Shown: positions 1,010 through 51,891 of the stretch, piece after piece
Layout: every line of letters begins with the position of its first letter
Numbering within the stretch: the stretch's first letter is position 1
From: a virus
IMG/VR virus record: IMGVR_UViG_3300009503_000020
Span: 1-64,000 of that record
Length of the DNA: 64,000 bases
Direction: 5' to 3' (one strand)
Position numbers and translations under genes: made by a program
The notes under the pieces: generated by a model
What the model was told of the DNA's origin: nothing
Database searches by the model: none
Seen by the model: the letters and a program-made list of their open reading frames with translations, nothing else

Positions 1010-1219
1010 ATGAATACGGGACAAGTAGAACGACATGCCCACAGAATCGGGTATGCCCTTTGCCCAAGATGTAGTGAGACATTAGAAGCTCACACAGTAA
1101 CAGAGCTTCTAATGACAGTCGAGGGTGAAGTCATGCTGTCAGTGTATACCGTGTGGGCATGTCGACAGTGTGGATGGCTTAAGAGGGTAATCTTCGAGAA
1201 GGTAATTGATACCTCATAG
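1010..1219 (+). CDS. Zinc-ribbon protein
   Basis: GGAGGTGA RBS precedes ATG 1010, so the start is revised from the track's 950. Motifs CPRC and CRQC. Confidence 0.7.
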   Translation: MNTGQVERHAHRIGYALCPRCSETLEAHTVTELLMTVEGEVMLSVYTVWACRQCGWLKRVIFEKVIDTS

Positions 1220-1260
1220 AAGATTACCCAACATCCACACTTTCATACTTACCTATCACA

Positions 1261-1957
1261 AGAGCCTGATGGCTCTATCACAGTCATCACTTCATGTGGT
1301 GACGCAGTGCAGTGAATTTCGGGTTCATTGCACTGCTACGAGGAACAGGGCATGAAATCCCATAAGTGCCCTGTCTCCGATGAAGCATGCATAGGTCTGG
1401 GTAAGCGGGACCAAAGTGGTGGCTTACCTTAGCCGATGAACCCACCAGCCACGGTAAAGTGGTTCCCCGAGATGGGGCTAAGTGGGTAAAGTGAGCACAT
1501 ATGGTGTGAACCATACGAGGCTCACTGGGGAGGTGAGAGGGAACTCACACAATTCCCGAAGGGAACACCGTCGAGGTTTACCCGAAATAAACCTCAATAG
1601 TGGAGTGGCAACCACACTAACAAAACGAATTGTGTGATTAAAGGGAAGACTTCAGCCCTCTCGAACAGACCTATGACGGGCAAATTGCATAGGAAAATAC
1701 CCGTAGAATGGGAGACCACGGGTCGACGACTAAAGACGCAAGCTCTCTCTGAGGAACATAACGTGCCCACGAAAGTGGGAAGACGAACTAACTCGGAGAG
1801 ACAATGCAACCTGAAGTCGTCAAGCCAAATCGTATTGGCAACGGGGTTCTTAACCATACTCTACAGTTCCAGCACTCCGAACCAAAAACACCACAGAGCG
1901 AAAGACACCTCTGCCCCGTTAGAGGTGATGAGGAGTGGTCTGCCTGTAGAGTTTTTT
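1261..1957 (+). ncRNA. Candidate large structured non-coding RNA (class not identified)
   Basis: More than 20 stems, including long-range perfect helices 1390-1399/1666-1675, 1545-1555/1627-1637, 1725-1731/1815-1821 and 1858-1866/1944-1952. GNRA loops (GTGA 1506, GAAA 1771) and G-U wobbles favour the + strand. Sampled 60-nt lines are 52-57% GC versus ~38% in a sampled coding line. Ends at a T6 tract. Confidence 0.8.
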
Positions 1958-1960
1958 CTG
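1952..1960 (+). terminator. Oligo-T tract closing the structured RNA
   Basis: TTTTTTCTG directly after the last helix; archaeal terminators are T-rich. Confidence 0.45.
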
Positions 1961-2024
1961 TATTCACACTTATCATATTACACCTTAGCGTCCTGGGACG
2001 CTAGGGTTCATAGGTATAGGAGGG

Positions 2025-2315
2025 ATGTGTATGGAATATAAAGGAAAGTATAGTAGAGGATGGAAACCTGTTCCTGATACCTATTGGATGTGTGAAGGTA
2101 TCTCTAAGGATGGAATATCCTTAGAGTATCTGGGAGTCATAAAGGTATCAGGAAAGGAAGTCTCGAGGGAAATGGATGAACACCAGAGTATCAAAGACTA
2201 CATGCCTTACAAGATAGCTAAACGAGTAGCTAAGGAACATTTCCCTCAAGTCAATCCTATTATAGTAACTCAAATAGGGAGGGATGTGTATGATAGGAAG
2301 AATAGAAAACCTTAG
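2025..2315 (+). CDS. Hypothetical protein
   Basis: GGAGG RBS; overlaps the next ORF. Confidence 0.55.
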   Translation: MCMEYKGKYSRGWKPVPDTYWMCEGISKDGISLEYLGVIKVSGKEVSREMDEHQSIKDYMPYKIAKRVAKEHFPQVNPIIVTQIGRDVYDRKNRKP

Positions 2316-3371: not shown

Positions 3372-6300
3372 CATACCTTTTCTATACCCAGAACACAATG
3401 TAGCAAGACAACTACAGATAGAAGTATGGCTTAACCCAGACATGATAGACTTAGGAGAACAGAAGCAGGTGAAGAGAGATGACCCTACTAAATACTACAT
3501 ATGCTAATGAGATGACAGTCCAAATAGGACGGATAAAAATAAAAAGAAAAGGAGGTAGAAAGAAATGAAGTGTCCTAACTGTGAATATCCGAGACTTAGA
3601 TACAATCTGAAAGTGCAGAGTGGAAAGAAACGAACAGACTTCAGTGCTGAATGTCCTAAATGTAAATGGACAGGAGAGATAGGAAATGAAAAAGAATAAG
3701 AATCCAAAGATAAAGAGATGCCACAGATGTGGAGGACTAATGGTGCAGTCTGACACAGAATGGGTCTGCTTAGGCAAGTGCAAACTACGAGAACCAAGAT
3801 TCCTCAAACCAGAGACACCATTCCTCTTCTTAAACATCAAAGCTAAGGATGAGAAGACACAGAAGTTTCTCGAAGACATAATGCAGAGACCAGAGACTGA
3901 AGTATTCAAAGACATCAAAGAGGATGGGACTGTGTTTGTCAAAGAGAGACTACCAGATGGTAGTGTAAGGATCCTTGATGTGACAACTATTCAGAAACTA
4001 TGTGACAAGATGGCTAGGGAGATAAGAGAACAATGAGATTAAAGAAATACTTGAGAGTTATCTGTTTCGGTGAACTAGCTTTTACATCTCTAATGTGGAT
4101 ATTAGTCTTCAGTGCATATCCAATAATTGAACCTAATGCCATCATAAGGAAAATAGAACAGATATTCTTTGTGGTCTTAGGAACAATTAGCCTCTACTTA
4201 GCATGGGATGAAGTAGTAAACGAAGAGTGATAATCGACAAGAGGAGAGTGGAAGACATGGAGAATGAAACAGACATTATCAACGAGAAGAACCAGAAGGT
4301 CTGTAAGTGTGGAAACAAGACATGGCTAGCTTACTTCAGTGGAATCCACTACACACTAGTTCTCAAATGCCCTAAATGCAATGCTACAGTGGAGTATGAA
4401 ATACTGGATTGGTAAGAGAGGTGAGAATAATGACAAATGAGGATGAGTTAGAGAAGATAAGCAAGACTCTTGAAGACATTCTATATCTTGTAAAGAGAGA
4501 CATTCTAGAATGCTGGAAGAAGAAGTTAAACAATGAAGAGCCTGATGTCACTTGTGAGGACTGTGACTATTCTCCAATTTGTGACCAATTCTTAAAGTGA
4601 AGATGCAAAGAGATGATGTGACATGTTATGGGCTTTCGGTCTTTATAAAAAGCCAATATACAAAGTCTATGACTGCTTAGTACGCTATAACCTTCCATGT
4701 ATTATCCAAGACTTGTTTGATGTCATTATTGACAACAACCTTCTCATTGAAGTTCTTTGGGACTTGAGAGATAGAGTCATAGAGCATATCAAATGGATTA
4801 TACATGGGAGAGTGGAAGACTAATGAAGAGAGTTAACAGAATCAAAAGACAAGTCTTGAAGAGAAAGATGACAGGAGTAATTAGATAGGAGGGAAGTGTA
4901 TGACAAAGAAACCACAGAAGTGTAAAAACATAGACGGTTGTGCAGGACTCTGTGAGAGTTGTGAACAATATCTTTCAGAGACTGAACTTCAGAGTAGAAG
5001 TAGAGGAAACTAAGATGAACAGGAAGAAAAAGTTAAAAGTCATAGCTACATTTCTTCTAATGCATGGTGGTGTATTGTTATACTGTGCTGCACCTTATGC
5101 TACAAAACCTCTCTATATTTTCCTAGTGCAACTAGCAGGACTAGGTGTAACAGTATTAGGATTCTTTACCTTCTTCAAGCAACTCTCATCTGACTGAAGG
5201 GAATTATATGACACCTGAAGATATATTTCGTGAGACATTTGCTAAGTACTGGAGTCAGATGATGGGTCAAGCATTTGCTATCATCTTCCTGATACTGTTG
5301 TTACTGATGGCCTTAGCAGGAATAGAGTTCTGGATTAAGTGGAATGAGACTAAGTTAAGATAGGAGGGTAGTCTCTTGAACAAAGACTTTACTCAGTGGT
5401 TAATGGAATTGCTTAACAAACTACAACCACAGCGTGTCTATGTAAATGCAGATGAACCTATTGTAGGCTATGTCTGGAATAACAGGAAGAAGTACCTGTA
5501 CTTCATATCTCAGAGAGAAGCAAACAAGCTTGATAGGCAACACATTGTCTGGAAACCTTTAGGAGAAGACTGGAAGTAAGAGGAGGGATAGAGATGAAGA
5601 AACAACACCCAATGATAGATGCACATTGGTATGGTATGGTAGAAGGAAGTGTTGAGACGATTGCTTCAATGGCTACTGCAATAGCTATTGTAGAACATAA
5701 CATATACCTTGTCCCTATTGCAATATTAGGTTACATTGCAGGCTTCTATATGCATAGAAAGTTTCAGAAGCTATTCAGGGAAGTGTAGAGTATGAGAATA
5801 GCAGTTGTGATTGATGCCTCTGCTTCTATAGTAGCTTTCTTGAGACTATATACTTTAGCTGAAGACCTGACAGAGATATTCTATCCACTGTCTATTGGAA
5901 TGGACATCCAGAAATTGAATGCACTAACTAAGAAGTATGATCAGGTCTACTTCTTCACTGATGGCTTGTTCCCTAAGGACGATGCTGAACTGATGATGAA
6001 CATAATCTCTAACAAGATAAAAATAATTAAGGTAGGAGGGTGGTAAGATGAACTGGAGAGCTGTTTCAGCTATAGGTGTAGATATCTGGCTAGCAACCTT
6101 CTTAATCTTGACAGAGACAGGACATGCAGGATCATTCTCCTGGTGGGTATCTCTGTTTGAGTTTGGAGTCAATGCAATAATGTGCTTTATAGCTGAAGAT
6201 AAGAAGGAGTAATACTATGTCAGACTATGATTGGATGGAACCAAAGACAGAGGAAGATGCAGTCAAGCAAGCAATTAAACGTATAGATAGACTGAACAAG

Positions 6301-9764: not shown

Positions 9765-10889
9765 ATGGTTGGAAAAGCTGAACAAGTTTCAGTAGCAGTA
9801 CAGGTCAAACATGACCAACTGAAAGAACTAGTCAAGCTATACTATAAAGCTAAGAAAGCTCTATTCGTATGGGGAGCAACTGGTGTAGGTAAATCACAAG
9901 TAGTCAGACAAGCAGCTATGGAATTAGCTCAAGAGTTAGGTCTTGAGTATACAGAAGATGTCAAACACCTCAACGATGAGAAGTACTTTGTAGTGATAGA
10001 CATACGACTCTCTCAGTCCGACCCGAGCGACTTACGAGGTATACCAATATACGATAAAGAACACATGGCTACTGTGTGGTTGCCACCTGAACTATTCCCA
10101 CGAAAAGGCTGTGGAATCATATTCTTTGATGAGTTGAATCTGTCTCCACCATTAGTACAAGCTAGTGCATACCAATTGATACTAGACAGACGATTAGGAA
10201 CTTATGTTGTTCCTGATGGCTACCTATTAGTAGCAGCAGGAAACAGACTAGAAGATAGAGCAGCTGTCTTTGAAATGAGTGGTCCTCTTAAGAACAGATT
10301 TGGTCACTGTGAACTAATGATACCATCAGTAGAGGACTGGACTAACTGGGCAGTGAAACATGGAATAGACATGAGGATAATCGGTTTCCTTAACTTCAAG
10401 AGAATGGCAATCTTTGGCTTTGACCCTAAGCTAAAGGAAAATGCATTCCCAACTCCTAGGTCATGGGAACACCTATCTAACCTAATTAAAGACATCAAGA
10501 GTGACCAGCTAGACTTGATACAGGAAATAGCAGCAACTCAGATAGGTGTAGGGACTGCAGGAGAATTTGCTACATTTATTAGAATCAAAGACAGACTTAA
10601 GCCAATGAAATACTACTTAGAAGACCCTGATAGCTGTGAACTACCAGATGAGAATACACAGCCAGATCTTGTATGGGCACTCATAACTAGCTTAGCAGAA
10701 TACTACAGAGACCACTCGGATTCAGCAACACTTGAGAAGATAATTGGAGTACTTAGAAGGATGAATGAAGAGTATGCTGTATTCACTCTGAAACTAATGG
10801 TCAGTGTAGACAAAGCATTGACACAGAAGATAATAAAGATAAAGGCTGCAAGTCAACTTGCTCGGAGGCTAATAGATTTCTTCAATTAA
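9765..10889 (+). CDS. MoxR-like AAA+ ATPase
   Basis: Walker A GATGVGKS, Walker B IIFFDELN, AAGNR sensor, LKNRF arginine finger, FPTPRSW. Confidence 0.9.
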   Translation: MVGKAEQVSVAVQVKHDQLKELVKLYYKAKKALFVWGATGVGKSQVVRQAAMELAQELGLEYTEDVKHLNDEKYFVVIDIRLSQSDPSDLRGIPIYDKEHMATVWLPPELFPRKGCGIIFFDELNLSPPLVQASAYQLILDRRLGTYVVPDGYLLVAAGNRLEDRAAVFEMSGPLKNRFGHCELMIPSVEDWTNWAVKHGIDMRIIGFLNFKRMAIFGFDPKLKENAFPTPRSWEHLSNLIKDIKSDQLDLIQEIAATQIGVGTAGEFATFIRIKDRLKPMKYYLEDPDSCELPDENTQPDLVWALITSLAEYYRDHSDSATLEKIIGVLRRMNEEYAVFTLKLMVSVDKALTQKIIKIKAASQLARRLIDFFN

Positions 10890-39348: not shown

Positions 39349-40310
39349 ATTGTATGGAATTAAAAATAAACCCTATACTAGAGAAGGCTATTCCACCACT
39401 TAGTCCAGAAAAACAGAAAGCTCTGAAGAAGTCTATTCAGAAGTATGGTCAGAGAGAATCAATAGATGTTATGCCTGATGGAACTATCATAGATGGACAC
39501 CACCGTTACAAGATAATCAAAGAACTTGGACTCGAACCAAAGTATAAGGTTAATGAAGACATAACTACTATAGAACAAGCTCTAGAACTAGGCGAGTCTT
39601 TAAACACTGACAGAAGGCACTACAATACAGCTATGGCAATCTTGCATGCATACAATGTAGAAAAGTCTAAATTAGCTGCAGAAGCTGAGAAGAGAAAGAA
39701 AAGAGGAACCTCAGCGTCCCAGGACGCTAGGGTAGGTAAAACTGCTGGGATTATAGCAGAGAGGTTAGGGATCTCTGAACGCACTGTTGAAAGAGGTTTC
39801 AAGATAATCAGAGATGCTCCTGAAGAAATAAAGCAGTTATGGTTAGGTGAACAGGTGCTTACTCAACCAACTGCCACAGCTATAGAAGCTTTAGAAAGCA
39901 TTCCAGATGAGTACAAGGATAGGAAACAAGTCTTAATAGACATGGTTGTCAAAGATCCAGAGAGAATCACCGAAATCAAGAAGATAGTTGGAGAGACAAA
40001 TGCAGTAATTGCCATGTTGGATGGGGAACCAGATAAAGTCAGAGTTGAAGCAGAGAAGGTACTGAAACCATTATTCTTCACTCCAGACTTAAACATCAAA
40101 GAAGCACTGTGGAAAGTTGAAGAGATAGCAAAGACAGGGCATGTGATCACTAAAGGCAGGAAATGGGCTGATGAGATTGGAGAGACTTGGGAAGAAGCTC
40201 AAGCATGGTTTGCTCACTATGGAGGATATTGCATTGGAGAAGTGAAGGGCTGGGAAGGAGAATGGGATCACCAAAGAGAACAACTAGAAAAGAAAGAGCA
40301 GAAAGAGTAG
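39345..40310 (+). CDS. ParB/Srx-like N-terminal domain plus HTH protein
   Basis: LKKSIQKYGQ..IIDGHHRY ParB motif; HTH-like IIAERLGISERTVER. Confidence 0.75.
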   Translation: MNCMELKINPILEKAIPPLSPEKQKALKKSIQKYGQRESIDVMPDGTIIDGHHRYKIIKELGLEPKYKVNEDITTIEQALELGESLNTDRRHYNTAMAILHAYNVEKSKLAAEAEKRKKRGTSASQDARVGKTAGIIAERLGISERTVERGFKIIRDAPEEIKQLWLGEQVLTQPTATAIEALESIPDEYKDRKQVLIDMVVKDPERITEIKKIVGETNAVIAMLDGEPDKVRVEAEKVLKPLFFTPDLNIKEALWKVEEIAKTGHVITKGRKWADEIGETWEEAQAWFAHYGGYCIGEVKGWEGEWDHQREQLEKKEQKE

Positions 40311-45144: not shown

Positions 45145-45633
45145 ATGTCAACTACTCCTCAAGATATAGAGAAGAAGTTTCCTGAAGTTTATGGCTATTC
45201 TATAAAGAAGGAGAGGAAAGAACAGGTAACCATAAAAGGAATTTCTCTTGAGATAAAGAAGTATACAACTACACTTAAGACAGGTGGAATTAGAGTCTCA
45301 CTTATAGACAACACTAGTGAGTTCTTTCTCAAGTACAATGAGTACCTTGCATCTATAGAGAGTTTTAGACCTGCAGAAGAGAAAGCAATGAACATGTGGT
45401 CTTTCACTACTCTGTGCACAGCAGATCCAAGTCTAGAAGAGATGGGAGGAGCAGGGTTCTATGTGTATCAGAATCACCTTGTGTTCAATGAAGAAGAGAA
45501 GAGTGCTCCTCCTATAGATAGACTTACTAAGTTTATAGAACACTACAAGAAGAAGTTTGGTATTAGAACAAGACTCAAGGAAGATGATTTCTCAGACTTG
45601 GATGTTCTAGAGAGGACAACAGAGAATGAATAA
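45145..45633 (+). CDS. Hypothetical protein in the MoxR operon
   Basis: Coupled between the ATPase and the peptidase genes. Confidence 0.6.
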   Translation: MSTTPQDIEKKFPEVYGYSIKKERKEQVTIKGISLEIKKYTTTLKTGGIRVSLIDNTSEFFLKYNEYLASIESFRPAEEKAMNMWSFTTLCTADPSLEEMGGAGFYVYQNHLVFNEEEKSAPPIDRLTKFIEHYKKKFGIRTRLKEDDFSDLDVLERTTENE

Positions 45634-47449
45634 GGAACTAATTACTAAGAAGAATTTCAACAAGATAGCTAAGAGATTAGAGGAACTGCAAGTACGCAGT
45701 TGGAAGATGTCTAGACCTATATTCCCTAAGATGACTCTATACTTCAAAGTATTTCCTATAGAATCATATTTCTCTACTGTAGGTCAGATCTGGTGGGTCA
45801 CACCTTACTGGAGAGGAGATGCTTTTGCTCTCTCTATTTTGTTCCATGAAGGACATCACTGGAACATCTATCCACTAGATATATTTAGAGCTATCAAAGA
45901 TATCTTTGAAGCTAGAAGACTTCTTGCTGAGGAGATAGGATTCGTACCTGAGAAAATCCAGAAGTCTCTTTGGAGAGTAGAAGAAGACTGGAGTCAGTTT
46001 GCATACTCTACAGCTGAACTTCAGTTCGTTGAAAATATTCTCGGAGATTACTGTCTTGAAGGAACGACAAAGATCCTACTCCCTGGTGGTGCAGAAAAAG
46101 AAATCAGAGAGATAAAAGAAGGAGATATAATCCTAGGAGTAAGAAATGGAAAAGTGGTACCTACTCGGGTCTTAGGGATTGGGAAAACTCTTCACACTGA
46201 AATAATTGAATTCAGAGATGGAAAACGCCATTTAGTCACCTCCCCTGAACATAAAATTTTTTCTTATCCAGACTTTCAACTTAAACTAGCAAAAGAGTTT
46301 AATAATGAGAGTGTTTACTATTACTTGGATGATAAACTTGGGCAAAAGAACCTGGACAGAAGAACAGATACAATTCCTGAAGGAAAATTATCCGAAGATG
46401 ACAGCAAAAGAAATAGCAGCAAGACTAGGAAAAACAGTTCACAGTGTTCAAGGCTATGTTTACCTTCACGTAGATACTCTCTCCAAGCGAGAACTCTCAA
46501 GAAAAAGATGCCACCAGATAGTCACTTCATTTACAGAAACGGAGAAAGCTTATATTGCTGGAATTGTCGATGGGGAAGGAACGATTACGATCGTGGGAAA
46601 GAAATATCGACAACCAATGATATCAATATCCAACACTTCTTTCCTTCTCAAAGAATATTTCGAACGACTTGGCTTTCAAACTCGAGTGAAGACAAATTGG
46701 GCAGGAACAGAATACTTCTCACTTTACATAACAGGGCAACACAATATCAGAGAATTCCTAGTTGCTATCAAAGATTACTTAGTAATCAAGAAGGAACATG
46801 CCCAACTCTTGCTGCAGTGGTTAGAACTGAAAGCTCAACAGAAGGTTCATGGCAAAGACACTCCTCAAATGGAGGAACTATTCAAACGCTTGAAACTTTT
46901 GAACTCAAGACATCCACATTTAAGGTTATCAGAAAGAAAAAAACTGATCCAGTAATTCTCTATGATCTAAAAACTTCAACCGGTTCATTCTTTGCTAACA
47001 GGATTCTAGTCCACAATTGTGTGAATTTACATATACATGACAACTATCCTCTAGTGTGGAATGATCTCTGGCATTTCCTCTCAGTTGAAGGTACATTTTA
47101 TGAGAAAGAGAAAGCACTCAAGAGAGACACTACTTTCCTGTTATACTTAGCAGTCTATCCAGAGCTAATTCCAGGTTTAGAACAGATACCAGTCAAAGAG
47201 AAAGTTTCTGAAGAGAAGATACCTAAGATAGCTCACATTGTTAAACTATGTAAAGAAGGAAGGATTTCTACTCCCTATGCTATTAAAGAGCTAGCTAAGT
47301 TATTCCATGACAATATCCAACAGGATCTCAAAGAAGCAGAAGGAGAAGGGAAAGAAGGAGATTTCAAATGCCCCAAATGCCACTCAGATGAAGGGTGGGA
47401 GATAGTCTCATACTTTGATGAACAGAAAGGAAAGTGGTTAGATGTCTGA
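45626..47449 (+). CDS. Intein-containing HExxH putative metallopeptidase (DUF2201-N-like)
   Basis: LFHEGHH. Spliced junction ENILGDY|CVN parallels NVAVDAAVN in the 11428 protein. C-terminal CPKC. Confidence 0.7.
   Translation: MNKELITKKNFNKIAKRLEELQVRSWKMSRPIFPKMTLYFKVFPIESYFSTVGQIWWVTPYWRGDAFALSILFHEGHHWNIYPLDIFRAIKDIFEARRLLAEEIGFVPEKIQKSLWRVEEDWSQFAYSTAELQFVENILGDYCLEGTTKILLPGGAEKEIREIKEGDIILGVRNGKVVPTRVLGIGKTLHTEIIEFRDGKRHLVTSPEHKIFSYPDFQLKLAKEFNNESVYYYLDDKLGQKNLDRRTDTIPEGKLSEDDSKRNSSKTRKNSSQCSRLCLPSRRYSLQARTLKKKMPPDSHFIYRNGESLYCWNCRWGRNDYDRGKEISTTNDINIQHFFPSQRIFRTTWLSNSSEDKLGRNRILLTLHNRATQYQRIPSCYQRLLSNQEGTCPTLAAVVRTESSTEGSWQRHSSNGGTIQTLETFELKTSTFKVIRKKKTDPVILYDLKTSTGSFFANRILVHNCVNLHIHDNYPLVWNDLWHFLSVEGTFYEKEKALKRDTTFLLYLAVYPELIPGLEQIPVKEKVSEEKIPKIAHIVKLCKEGRISTPYAIKELAKLFHDNIQQDLKEAEGEGKEGDFKCPKCHSDEGWEIVSYFDEQKGKWLDV
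46052..47017 (+). mobile_element. Intein (322 aa) with out-of-frame homing endonuclease
   Basis: Block A CLEGTTKILL, block B TSPEHKIF, block F YDLKT..FFAN, block G VHN followed by C. Reading frame is open throughout. Confidence 0.9.
46305..46955 (+). CDS. LAGLIDADG endonuclease with N-terminal HTH, nested in the +1 frame of the intein
   Basis: YIAGIVDGEGTI motif; WTEEQIQFLKENY..EIAARLGKT HTH; LVIKKEHA C-terminus. Confidence 0.85.
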   Translation: MRVFTITWMINLGKRTWTEEQIQFLKENYPKMTAKEIAARLGKTVHSVQGYVYLHVDTLSKRELSRKRCHQIVTSFTETEKAYIAGIVDGEGTITIVGKKYRQPMISISNTSFLLKEYFERLGFQTRVKTNWAGTEYFSLYITGQHNIREFLVAIKDYLVIKKEHAQLLLQWLELKAQQKVHGKDTPQMEELFKRLKLLNSRHPHLRLSERKKLIQ

Positions 47450-50337: not shown

Positions 50338-51891
50338 ATGCAGACTTTAATTCATTCAGGAGTGTATTTACCAACATATAATCCAATAGGTCTGACAATC
50401 AAGTTCAAAGGAAAAGAGATAGAACTAGAGCCTGAAGCAGAGTGCATGGCAATTGCTTTTGCTAAGAAATTTGATACACCATACTTAAATGATAATGTGT
50501 TTGTTACCAACTTCCTTCTAGACTTCTCTACCAAGCTAGGAATAGAGAAAGAAGATGGTTGTTTAGACTTAAAGAACTATGACTTTGAAGCTATCAAAAA
50601 ATACTTAGAAGAGACAAAAGCTAAGACAGAGGGTATGACTAAAGAAGAGAAGAAATTAGCTACTACTTTAAAGAAACAACTAAGAGAGCAACTGAAAGAA
50701 AAATATGGATATGCCTTAGTAGATGGAGTGAAGACTCCTGTAATGAATTGGGCAGTTGAACCTCCCTCGATATTTATGAGCAAAGGAAAGAACCCTCTCA
50801 GAGGACACTGGAAGAGAGCAATACGCAAAGAAGAGATTATACTTAATTCCTCTCAACCAATGGAAGGTTGGAATACAGTCTGGGAACCTAATGAGTTGTG
50901 GATAGCTAAATGGAAGGATGTCTTTGACCCTACTCGTTGGAAGTATGTCTGGTTGTCACCTGCCTCTCAGCTTAGACAAGAAAGAGAAAAGAAGAAGTTT
51001 GAAAAGGCAGAGAACTTAGCTAAGAATATTAAGAAACTAGAAGTATTCATAGACAAAGAACTGAAGAGTCCAGATGTAACTAGGAGAAAGCTAGCTACTG
51101 TATGTTGGTTAATGAAGAATTTAGGTATTCGAGTCGGAGATGAACGTATCGCAGGAGAACGTGGCACACTTGGTTGTACTACTCTCAAGGCAGAGAATGT
51201 CAAACTAGGTAAAGATGGTACAGTTTATCTAGACTTCACAGGCAAAGATTATGTTCATTGGATGAAGTCTTTCAAGCCACCAGAACAAGTCTACAAGAAC
51301 TTACAAGAGTTCAAAGAAACAGCTAAGGATGACTTTCTCTTTAAAGGACTTGACTCCAACAAAGTTTCTCGCTTCCTCAGAGAAGTCTTGCCTGGGATGT
51401 CAGCTAAGGTCTTCAGAACTTATCTAGCAGGAACAGTGTGGGATGAGAATGCTAAGGAGCATCTCAAGCTAGTAGATGGAAGAACTTCACTCCCTGTTAG
51501 ACTTTACCTGTTTAAGATGACTAACTTAGCAGTAGCCAAAACATTAAACCATAGAAGAGCCTTACCAAAGAATTACCAAGAGAGAATTGCTAAGAAAGAA
51601 GAACAACTAAAGAAGGAAACAGCTAAGCTAGAATCCTTGAAAGAAGCTCCTGAGTCTAAACTACTAAAACAACAGAGGAAGGCAGAGAAAATAGCTTGTG
51701 AGTTAAATCTCTTGAAAGAGACAGCAGAGTGGAACCTGAACACTAGTCTGACTAGTTATATTTCCCCTAAGAAGACACTCTACTTCTGCAAGAAAGCTGG
51801 ACTTAAACCAGAACAGATATATTCCAAGAGTCTCCAAGAGAAGTTTAGTTGGATAATTAAGAGGGATGAGGACGATACAGAGGAGAGCTGA
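50338..51891 (+). CDS. top1: DNA topoisomerase IB (eukaryote/TACK-like)
   Basis: VEPPSIF..GKNPLRG, GIRVGDE (Arg), FTGKD (Lys), KVFRTY (Arg), LNH (His), TSLTSY (Tyr). Confidence 0.92.
   Translation: MQTLIHSGVYLPTYNPIGLTIKFKGKEIELEPEAECMAIAFAKKFDTPYLNDNVFVTNFLLDFSTKLGIEKEDGCLDLKNYDFEAIKKYLEETKAKTEGMTKEEKKLATTLKKQLREQLKEKYGYALVDGVKTPVMNWAVEPPSIFMSKGKNPLRGHWKRAIRKEEIILNSSQPMEGWNTVWEPNELWIAKWKDVFDPTRWKYVWLSPASQLRQEREKKKFEKAENLAKNIKKLEVFIDKELKSPDVTRRKLATVCWLMKNLGIRVGDERIAGERGTLGCTTLKAENVKLGKDGTVYLDFTGKDYVHWMKSFKPPEQVYKNLQEFKETAKDDFLFKGLDSNKVSRFLREVLPGMSAKVFRTYLAGTVWDENAKEHLKLVDGRTSLPVRLYLFKMTNLAVAKTLNHRRALPKNYQERIAKKEEQLKKETAKLESLKEAPESKLLKQQRKAEKIACELNLLKETAEWNLNTSLTSYISPKKTLYFCKKAGLKPEQIYSKSLQEKFSWIIKRDEDDTEES

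Follow-up and report, generated by a model that had tools for sequence, protein, structure and literature searches.

To our knowledge, large non-coding RNAs (ncRNAs) with complex folds are rare and few classes have been described (ribosomal RNAs, RNase P, group I and II introns, OLE, GOLLD, ROOL and others). ROOL, GOLLD and OLE were recently solved as homo-oligomeric RNA assemblies. Here, we analyse the first 64 kb (hereafter the window) of the 120,717-base IMG/VR virus record IMGVR_UViG_3300009503_000020 (G000), in which a first-pass annotation had proposed a new large structured viral ncRNA. Its fold, its covariation in seven viral lineages and its absence from Rfam support this proposal, and we are highly confident that the locus encodes a genuine structured ncRNA of a new family. 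A fuller interpretation is that window positions ~1275–1957 (+ strand) are a discrete ncRNA gene of ~680–700 nt, carried by a head-tailed archaeal virus and founding an undescribed family, which would work by the mechanism proposed at the end of this text. We give this interpretation as a whole, mechanism included, an even chance of being right.

Folding, homologues and covariation

The annotation had described a ~700-nt highly structured region, and the folding energies bear this out. The + strand of window 1220–2020 has a minimum free energy (MFE) of -305 kcal/mol, against -233 ± 9 kcal/mol for dinucleotide shuffles (z -7.9), whereas an 801-nt coding control (9800–10600) reaches -210 kcal/mol and z -2.2. 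The raised GC and CpG that had also been noticed are real: GC is 0.504 in the RNA region versus 0.385 in the genome, and the observed/expected ratio of CpG is 0.70 in the RNA gene versus 0.17 genome-wide. CpG depletion is extreme throughout this genome (748 CG in 120.7 kb), and the 31 CG of the RNA gene make up ~4% of the genome total on 0.6% of its length. The region is not protein-coding. No open reading frame (ORF) spanning 1220–2024 has a protein match or a recognisable start, a 135-aa ORF at 1634–2041 has no Pfam match, and no reading frame is shared across the homologues described below. The longest stop-free stretch in one of them (L034) is 54 aa, and only 93 of the 463 gaps in the alignment are multiples of three.

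We relied on synteny to collect these homologues because DNA searches had found none; for instance, the region has no blastn match in 50,697 phage records. A search of 5.8 billion proteins gave five relatives of the neighbouring PD-(D/E)XK nuclease, and the contigs that encode them contain an alignable gene-free stretch immediately upstream of the nuclease. The same nuclease used as a query in viral contigs returned no related locus. Relatives of the terminase led to L028 (a 156-kb IMG/VR record), L034, L035/36 and L037–40, each with a homologue at the same locus. The homologues are supported by nhmmer with E values from 1e-16 to 1e-71 and represent seven lineages: the window together with L007, the L003 group (L003–6), L008, L028, L034, L035 (L035/36) and L037 (L037–40). 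RNA identity between clades is 40–66%, and the terminases of the RNA-bearing lineages are 65–77% identical to that of this virus. All these lineages come from ~120-kb head-tailed viruses of hot springs and sediments.

Motif scans did not extend the family beyond these viruses. A 16-base motif gave 12 hits in viral contigs, all of which nhmmer calls chance. A longer motif retrieved solely copies of lineages already known here from metagenome contigs, and the L028 contig only from viral contigs. In 185,579 prokaryote genomes the longer motif gave three bacterial hits, which nhmmer rejected, and no cellular or proviral copy was seen there with this strict search pattern. Among the more distant relatives L041–L046 (terminase 47–59% identical), nhmmer found nothing. 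One of these, L045 (terminase 59% identical), has a syntenic gene-free stretch at 4900–5640 of its minus strand, which folds with z -14, a value that stands out even within the family, carries the core motifs of the family in nearly the same order and ends with a helix and a T-run. The stretch starts with a long near-perfect hairpin built from iteron units. Solely on its colinear motifs and extreme fold, we accept L045 as a divergent member of the family. L042 (z -3.8; the domain III model hits the end of its gap at E 0.76, immediately 5' of a T-run) and L041 (z -6.5) are candidates only.

Covariation, which had been suggested as a check, is strong across the seven lineages. We derived a consensus of 86 pairs by RNAalifold from a plain MAFFT alignment (A3), and 59 of these pairs changed on both sides while remaining paired, compared with 13–19 in six slid controls. 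Standard pairs fill 87% of the cells versus 69% in shuffles, and the covariation score is 0.571 versus ~0.10 in slid controls; none of 500 shuffles reaches the observed value. The pattern is also visible among close variants: in L007 and run X3, positions 1491–1492 and 1524–1525 carry a double compensatory change relative to the window, and the variant in run X5 has compensatory changes in all three 5' hairpins. Most of the helices that had been drawn from the window's letters reappear in the covariation-supported consensus (1283–1303; 1304–1336; 1390–1399/1666–1675; 1400–1406/1422–1428; 1745–1753/1792–1800; the GAAA-capped 1765–1780; 1858–1866/1944–1952; 1873–1878/1932–1937). Natural variants back two more, 1345–1374 through the compensatory pair 1351/1368 and 1490–1496/1520–1526 through the double change just mentioned. 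Three others are not supported outside this lineage: 1261–1276 has a matching hairpin in L034 only; the 5' strand of 1725–1731/1815–1821 is nearly invariant and its partner strand is not conserved; and 1906–1912/1921–1927 competes with the conserved pairs 1894–1898/1909–1913 and 1881–1883/1924–1926.

These data also indicate which strand is the RNA. We assign it to the + strand because the consensus pairs contain 61 GU/UG cells against 22 AC/CA cells, in agreement with the earlier remark that mismatches are mostly G-U, because the alignment folds better in this orientation (-54.7 kcal/mol versus -37.9 on the - strand), and because a T-run follows the closing helix on one strand only. The same asymmetries bear on the idea that there is no RNA at all and that the region is a DNA-level element (an origin or a packaging site) or a chance GC-rich spacer. 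This idea can draw on the iterons nearby and on the minus strand of window 1220–2020, which folds well too (z -6.2). However, it is contradicted by the excess of G-U over A-C, the better fold of the + strand, the one-sided T-run and the presence of covarying RNA-type motifs (GNRA loops, a kink-turn), and we regard it as extremely improbable.

Architecture of the RNA

We start at the 3' end of the RNA. Domain III (1859–1951) is closed by the helix 1859–1866/1944–1951 and contains an inner hairpin at 1894–1898/1909–1913. It has the elements that define a kink-turn: an NC stem (1873–1878/1932–1937) that covaries in the seven lineages, tandem G-A pairs (G1879 A1880 opposite G1930 A1931) whose letters are invariant, a 3-nt bulge (1927–1929) and a C stem (1881–1883/1924–1926) that covaries as well. 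The GA and AUGA letters are fixed. A covariance model (R1, from alignment A5) built from four other lineages only, with the window excluded, matches window 1839–1961 with E 2.7e-8, L003 with 5e-5 and L008 with 2e-3. In the domain III alignment made after R1, 20 of the 21 pairs change on both sides, against 4–7 in slid controls, and each of the seven sequences folds alike when taken singly. Judged by these features, domain III holds a canonical kink-turn. In archaea, kink-turns bind L7Ae, be it in ribosomal RNA, in C/D and H/ACA small RNAs (sRNAs) or in RNase P RNA. We consider it fairly probable that L7Ae binds the present RNA too. No L7Ae gene was found in the virus, so the protein of the host would be used.

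At the other end, a promoter-like element of 18–20 nt lies at 1236–1253 (+ strand), and a similar copy is found at 1966–1983, ahead of the next gene. The block is kept in alignments A1 and A3 and is duplicated upstream of the L034 copy. If it is a TATA-like box, the RNA would start near 1275–1283. Its repetition ahead of the next gene suggests that the RNA is a separate transcription unit. Two 5' hairpins follow, at 1283–1287/1299–1303 (8 bp in the window) and 1304–1317/1323–1336 (13 bp), where 3 of 5 and 10 of 13 pairs, respectively, change on both sides. The next hairpin (1345–1374) has a 14-nt loop (1353–1366). Within its stem a C>T change at 1351 is compensated by G>A at 1368, and the stem sequence differs in L028, L037, L035 and L034. 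The loop is conserved in five lineages and different in the L003/L008 clade.

RNAalifold predicts that loop positions 1353–1360 pair with 1843–1850, with zero pairs changed on both sides. This pairing may be a pseudoknot or an intermolecular contact; it is unproven because both strands are invariant and the L003 clade differs. An intermolecular contact would be expected if the RNA were an RNA-only homo-oligomer, a cage or a ring like those of ROOL, GOLLD and OLE, held together by the loop of one molecule pairing with 1843–1850 of another. The size, the ornate fold and the virus-encoded origin resemble ROOL and GOLLD (PMC12286853). The two partner strands are invariant in five lineages, an observation that does not distinguish placement within a molecule from placement between molecules. 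Against such an assembly, the RNA has neither sequence nor model similarity to those families, and the loop differs in the L003/L008 clade. We consider it unlikely.

Next comes a core junction region (1377–1441) made of conserved blocks in alignment A3. Here, GAUGA-type strands at 1377–1386 and 1429–1441 flank the hairpin 1400–1406/1422–1428, and 1387–1399 is the 5' closing strand of domain I. Both-side changes affect 10 of the 11 pairs of the domain I closing helix and 4 of 6 in the hairpin, and the junction motifs recur in the same order in the distant copy L045. The GAUGA-type strands may be further kink-turns or loop-E-like motifs, which is not established. The interior of domain I (~1441–1656) is variable. 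In the window it holds the hairpin 1490–1496/1520–1526, with a GUGA loop, and the helix 1545–1555/1627–1637; run X5 has 209 unalignable letters instead, and in L034 the interior is much shorter. Two long-range consensus helices complete the domain, 1534–1540/1657–1663 and the pairing of the 3' closing strand 1666–1676 with 1387–1399. The linker that follows (1685–1733) consists of a conserved single-stranded block (1685–1696), a hairpin (1699–1704/1718–1723) in which 3 of 6 pairs change on both sides, and a near-invariant 9-nt strand (1725–1733). Domain II (1738–1806) comprises the helix 1748–1753/1792–1798, a conserved asymmetric internal loop and a GAAA hairpin (1765–1770/1775–1780), with both-side changes in 3 of 6 pairs of the helix and in all 6 of the apical hairpin. 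Before domain III, the consensus has one more hairpin (1824–1828/1835–1839) and then the G-rich strand 1843–1850, whose columns are invariant in alignments A3 and A4. Overall, two peripheral parts, the domain I interior and the domain II apex, vary freely around a conserved core of junction strands.

The likely transcript end is a run of six T (1952–1957), directly 3' of the closing helix of domain III. A closing helix followed by a T-run ends every copy in the seven lineages, and T6CT is rare, with 4 occurrences on the whole + strand (120.7 kb). These features point to termination at the run. A 10-bp GC-rich hairpin (1983–2006) lies between it and the ribosome-binding site of the next gene. 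It is kept in run X5 via compensatory changes at 1987/2002 and 1990/1999, and a 28-nt stretch near 39706–39733, on the other strand, is 89% similar to it.

A natural allele shows how far the periphery can change. In L007 and L023, window positions 1731–1807 (77 nt) are replaced by 516 nt (L007 2066–2581), the remainder being ~97% identical. The helix of domain II is retained, divergent yet fully paired, and the apical hairpin has given way to a 131-aa ORF that has small hairpins of its own in front of it and matches endonuclease VII/HNH weakly (E 0.0018, under the Pfam cut-off). Contigs of run X3 have the same junction (1730 to 1808) alongside the ORF-less form. The insert resembles a homing-type endonuclease gene lodged in a loop where a conserved target tolerates it, and the divergent flanking helix looks as it would after gene conversion from another lineage. 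Such an allele could be taken to mean that the RNA is a decayed or ORF-less mobile intron, or another selfish RNA, fixed at the locus by chance. The endonuclease ORF, its flank resembling co-conversion and the inteins in the neighbouring terminase genes of relatives would all suit this origin. However, neither the locus nor the orientation of the RNA changes across seven lineages with terminases 65–77% identical to that of this virus, which argues for vertical descent. Furthermore, Rfam gives no signal for group I or II introns, the RNA does not interrupt a host gene, and it is ORF-free in six of the seven lineages. We find a mobile origin very improbable; an RNA gene that is important and vertically inherited suits the allele better than a mobile intron does.

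A different reading of the same anatomy is that the RNA is a ribozyme. Its junction strands would then form the active site, with which it would process itself or cleave or ligate another RNA, and its variable periphery and loop ORF would be comparable to those of RNase P RNA or group I/II introns. Catalysis would be consistent with the conserved core and its variable periphery, the GNRA loops, the kink-turn and the long-range pairing that a loop may form, as well as with the endonuclease ORF in the apical loop of one allele and the RNA ligase encoded by the virus. Yet no Rfam ribozyme family matches at E up to 10, there are no candidate cleavage or splice sites, and the flanks are complete ORFs and intergenic DNA, with no split exons. 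On this evidence a ribozyme is rather unlikely.

Source virus and genomic setting

The ends of the record share a 123-base overlap, which makes the assembly circular and the choice of position 1 arbitrary. Genes for a terminase, a portal and an HK97-type capsid form a module, as seen in relatives. The window also encodes a full-length topoisomerase IB of the eukaryote type (50338–51891; Pfam 182 + 145 + 50 bits). Its named close relatives are all archaeal, the nearest being metagenome-assembled genomes (MAGs) of Nitrososphaeria with 48–50% identity, one of them on a 796-kb contig. A small ORF at 28294–28530 is eS30-like (E 4.7e-5, under the Pfam cut-off), and the sequencing runs that contain the region are hot-spring and sediment metagenomes. 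Given these relatives, this ORF and these sources, we are most likely dealing with a head-tailed virus of ~120 kb whose host is a thermophilic archaeon. The first-pass annotation had compared the RNA with those of phages; the topoisomerase and the eS30-like ORF suggest instead that the virus is archaeal and not a bacteriophage. At the ends of a 'provirus' record (G001) there are capsid and glycosylation genes, and neither a host marker nor a tRNA.

The RNA locus lies between an iteron-bearing region that adjoins the terminase module and a long rightward gene array of roughly 60 kb, so that the RNA heads a long run of + strand genes. In the contigs with nuclease relatives, it is 2.5–3.5 kb from the start of the large terminase gene, which is on the opposite strand; the same arrangement is found in this genome, where it spans the arbitrary ends. 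The upstream ORF (1010–1219, 69 aa) closes with its own stop codon. Downstream, the next gene varies by clade: it is a 96-aa ORF in this genome, and in L003 the nuclease gene comes directly after the RNA. Each of the two complete genomes has a single copy of the RNA. The window has no tRNA genes, and the genome encodes an RNA ligase and a Nop-domain protein. Across lineages, no protein gene is consistently linked to the RNA, and the small upstream ORFs are not alignable between clades. Among the terminase genes of these viruses, the large terminases of L003 (315–2636) and L042 (5863–8175) have 770–773 aa with a LAGLIDADG-type insertion (intein), and that of the present genome (G000 117910–119307) has 466 aa and is insertion-free. 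A 607-aa ORF of the window (45626–47449) has a weak match to an intein-splicing domain.

The region upstream of the RNA is rich in repeats. In the window, it contains an iteron array with a 13-nt period and six to eight GTGCAACTG-type copies, plus three 48-nt repeats (389–496 and 206–349). Arrays of the GTGCAACTG / GTTCAACTG type are found upstream of the RNA in most lineages examined (weak in L003), and in most related lineages the interval from the terminase module to the RNA contains related GTTCAACTG / GTGCAACT units. Iteron units precede the RNA copies of L028, L034, L035, L037 and L045, directly 5' of the RNA in the last. The iteron region is a candidate replication origin or regulator-binding region. 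A 28-nt element occurs twice (843–870 and 943–970, 100 nt apart), with a short inverted repeat in each copy, in the ~235-nt spacer between the small zinc-ribbon ORFs 652–774 and 1010–1219. A TATA-like TTTATAA (~891–897) lies between the two copies, which may be operators of an early promoter.

This setting raises the question of whether the RNA is a cis-acting element of the early region, i.e. a giant leader, an attenuator, a processive antiterminator or an origin-proximal primer or regulator RNA. Its place at the head of the + strand gene run, downstream of iteron arrays in most lineages (again weakly so in L003), is what such an element would have. The T-run and the conserved hairpin that separate it from the next gene are compatible with the idea, and in some clades the strand 1670–1676 can pair with either of two upstream/downstream copies of one hexamer. 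But four clades do not conserve this alternative pairing, the identity of the following gene depends on the clade, and the next gene has a promoter-like element of its own. In addition, 700 nt with tertiary motifs far exceed known leaders. A role in cis is, in our view, quite unlikely.

Proposed function and relation to known RNAs

In the mechanism that we propose, the RNA would be transcribed from its own promoter-like element and end at the T-run. Host L7Ae would bind the kink-turn of domain III, and possibly other GAUGA-type strands too. The resulting compact ribonucleoprotein (RNP) would be a particle with an architectural or catalytic role, acting in trans while the virus infects its host. 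We put forward this trans-acting RNP tentatively. It is possible, if doubtful, that the RNA stands for the first class of large RNP RNAs, catalytic or architectural, to be specific to archaeal viruses. It would rely on host L7Ae via its kink-turn(s), and its function would have no cellular counterpart. Several points weigh against our interpretation. The 5' end is loosely bounded, and co-transcription with the upstream 69-aa ORF could occur. None of the sequencing runs listed for the region is an RNA run, and transcription is deduced from the DNA. The argument for L7Ae binding is one of sequence geometry alone, for a protein that the virus lacks, and a single kink-turn is fully supported. The host is judged from marker genes, closest to Nitrososphaeria. 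Finally, the lineages share no consistent link of a protein gene to the RNA, so no specific activity is indicated.

What is new here is the RNA family itself, the mechanism being a proposal. Each of the known large ncRNA classes has opened a field and, judging from Rfam 15 and full-text literature searches, none comes from archaeal viruses; those literature searches found no description of large structured RNAs of these viruses. The family offers seven or more divergent natural sequences, defined domain borders and a natural insertion-tolerant site for experiments. The kink-turn provides a testable protein handle, and the thermophilic origin is favourable for structural work. If our interpretation is true, an L7Ae-recruiting RNA would perform a virus-specific function, e.g. 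ribozyme activity or formation of a self-assembling particle. Finding this function would show why a thermophilic archaeal virus needs a 700-nt folded RNA.

We compared the locus with the 4,227 covariance models of Rfam 15, using the gathering threshold of each family. No family reached the threshold anywhere in the window. At E up to 10, window 1100–2100 gave five chance-level hairpin hits (11–17 bits), and four homologues and two distant candidates gave nothing meaningful or recurrent. The sole repeated hit, a mir-275 hairpin below threshold in the near-identical L008 and L024, was discarded. The claims that the RNA belongs to no known class, and that it is not RNase P, the signal recognition particle RNA, transfer-messenger RNA or a group I/II intron, thus agree with the absence of meaningful Rfam matches to E 10 in the region and of known classes in its homologues.

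Archaeal RNase P RNA resembles the viral RNA in being large, in its archaeal context, in its conserved core and variable periphery, in its L7Ae-type kink-turn(s) and possibly in long-range pairing. It differs in that the ends of the viral RNA form no P1-like helix and in size, the viral RNA being about twice as big. The RNaseP_arch model (RF00373), which represents the core helices and the conserved regions CR-I to CR-V, has no hit at E up to 10 anywhere in the 120.7-kb genome. As a control, this search was run on 14 other genomes; it gives a signal in 13 and exceeds the family cut-off in 4. The likeness to box C/D sRNAs (C'/D' type) lies in domain III, where a C-box-like strand faces a D-box-like GA strand between two helices. 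However, this motif is within a 95-nt domain of a 700-nt RNA, ten times the size of an archaeal C/D sRNA. Box C/D sRNAs have 50–70 nt, C/D and C'/D' boxes and single-stranded guides upstream of the D boxes; in the viral RNA no guide is available because the sequence upstream of the D-like GA is base-paired as the 5' strand of a conserved helix.

Group I introns with homing-endonuclease ORFs are comparable to the allele of L007, L023 and run X3, which has an ORF in a peripheral loop and an otherwise undisturbed fold. In contrast to them, the viral RNA has no detectable core and no exons, most of its copies are ORF-free and its intergenic locus is fixed. No Rfam group I or group II intron model hits the window, and there is no interrupted host gene around the RNA, where the flanks are complete ORFs and intergenic DNA. 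A domain-5-like hairpin of 28 nt (19 bits, E 1.8) was seen in L030 only and was set aside as not recurrent. We considered a link between the Nop-domain protein of the virus and kink-turn RNAs by way of TIGR-Tas systems; the paper on these (PMC12045711) offers none for large RNAs, and we dropped this lead. The packaging RNA (pRNA) of phi29 is likewise a structured RNA encoded by a head-tailed virus, and the RNA described here lies a few kb from the terminase and portal genes. Yet pRNA has ~170 nt and an unrelated sequence, and the viral RNA points away from the packaging genes, its link to packaging being one of map position alone.

This leaves GOLLD, ROOL and OLE, whose families we take to be included in Rfam and whose covariance models gave no match at E up to 10. 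The parallel with GOLLD and ROOL drawn in the first-pass annotation holds for size and does not go beyond that analogy. Like the viral RNA, the three classes are 600–800 nt long, multi-domain and conserved by covariation, with function unknown, and GOLLD and ROOL are often phage-borne. They differ in occurring in bacteria and phages instead of an archaeal virus, in their architecture and in their setting, as the viral RNA has no adjoining tRNA genes. OLE, in turn, carries a kink-turn that binds a partner protein (PMC9723947), as domain III might.

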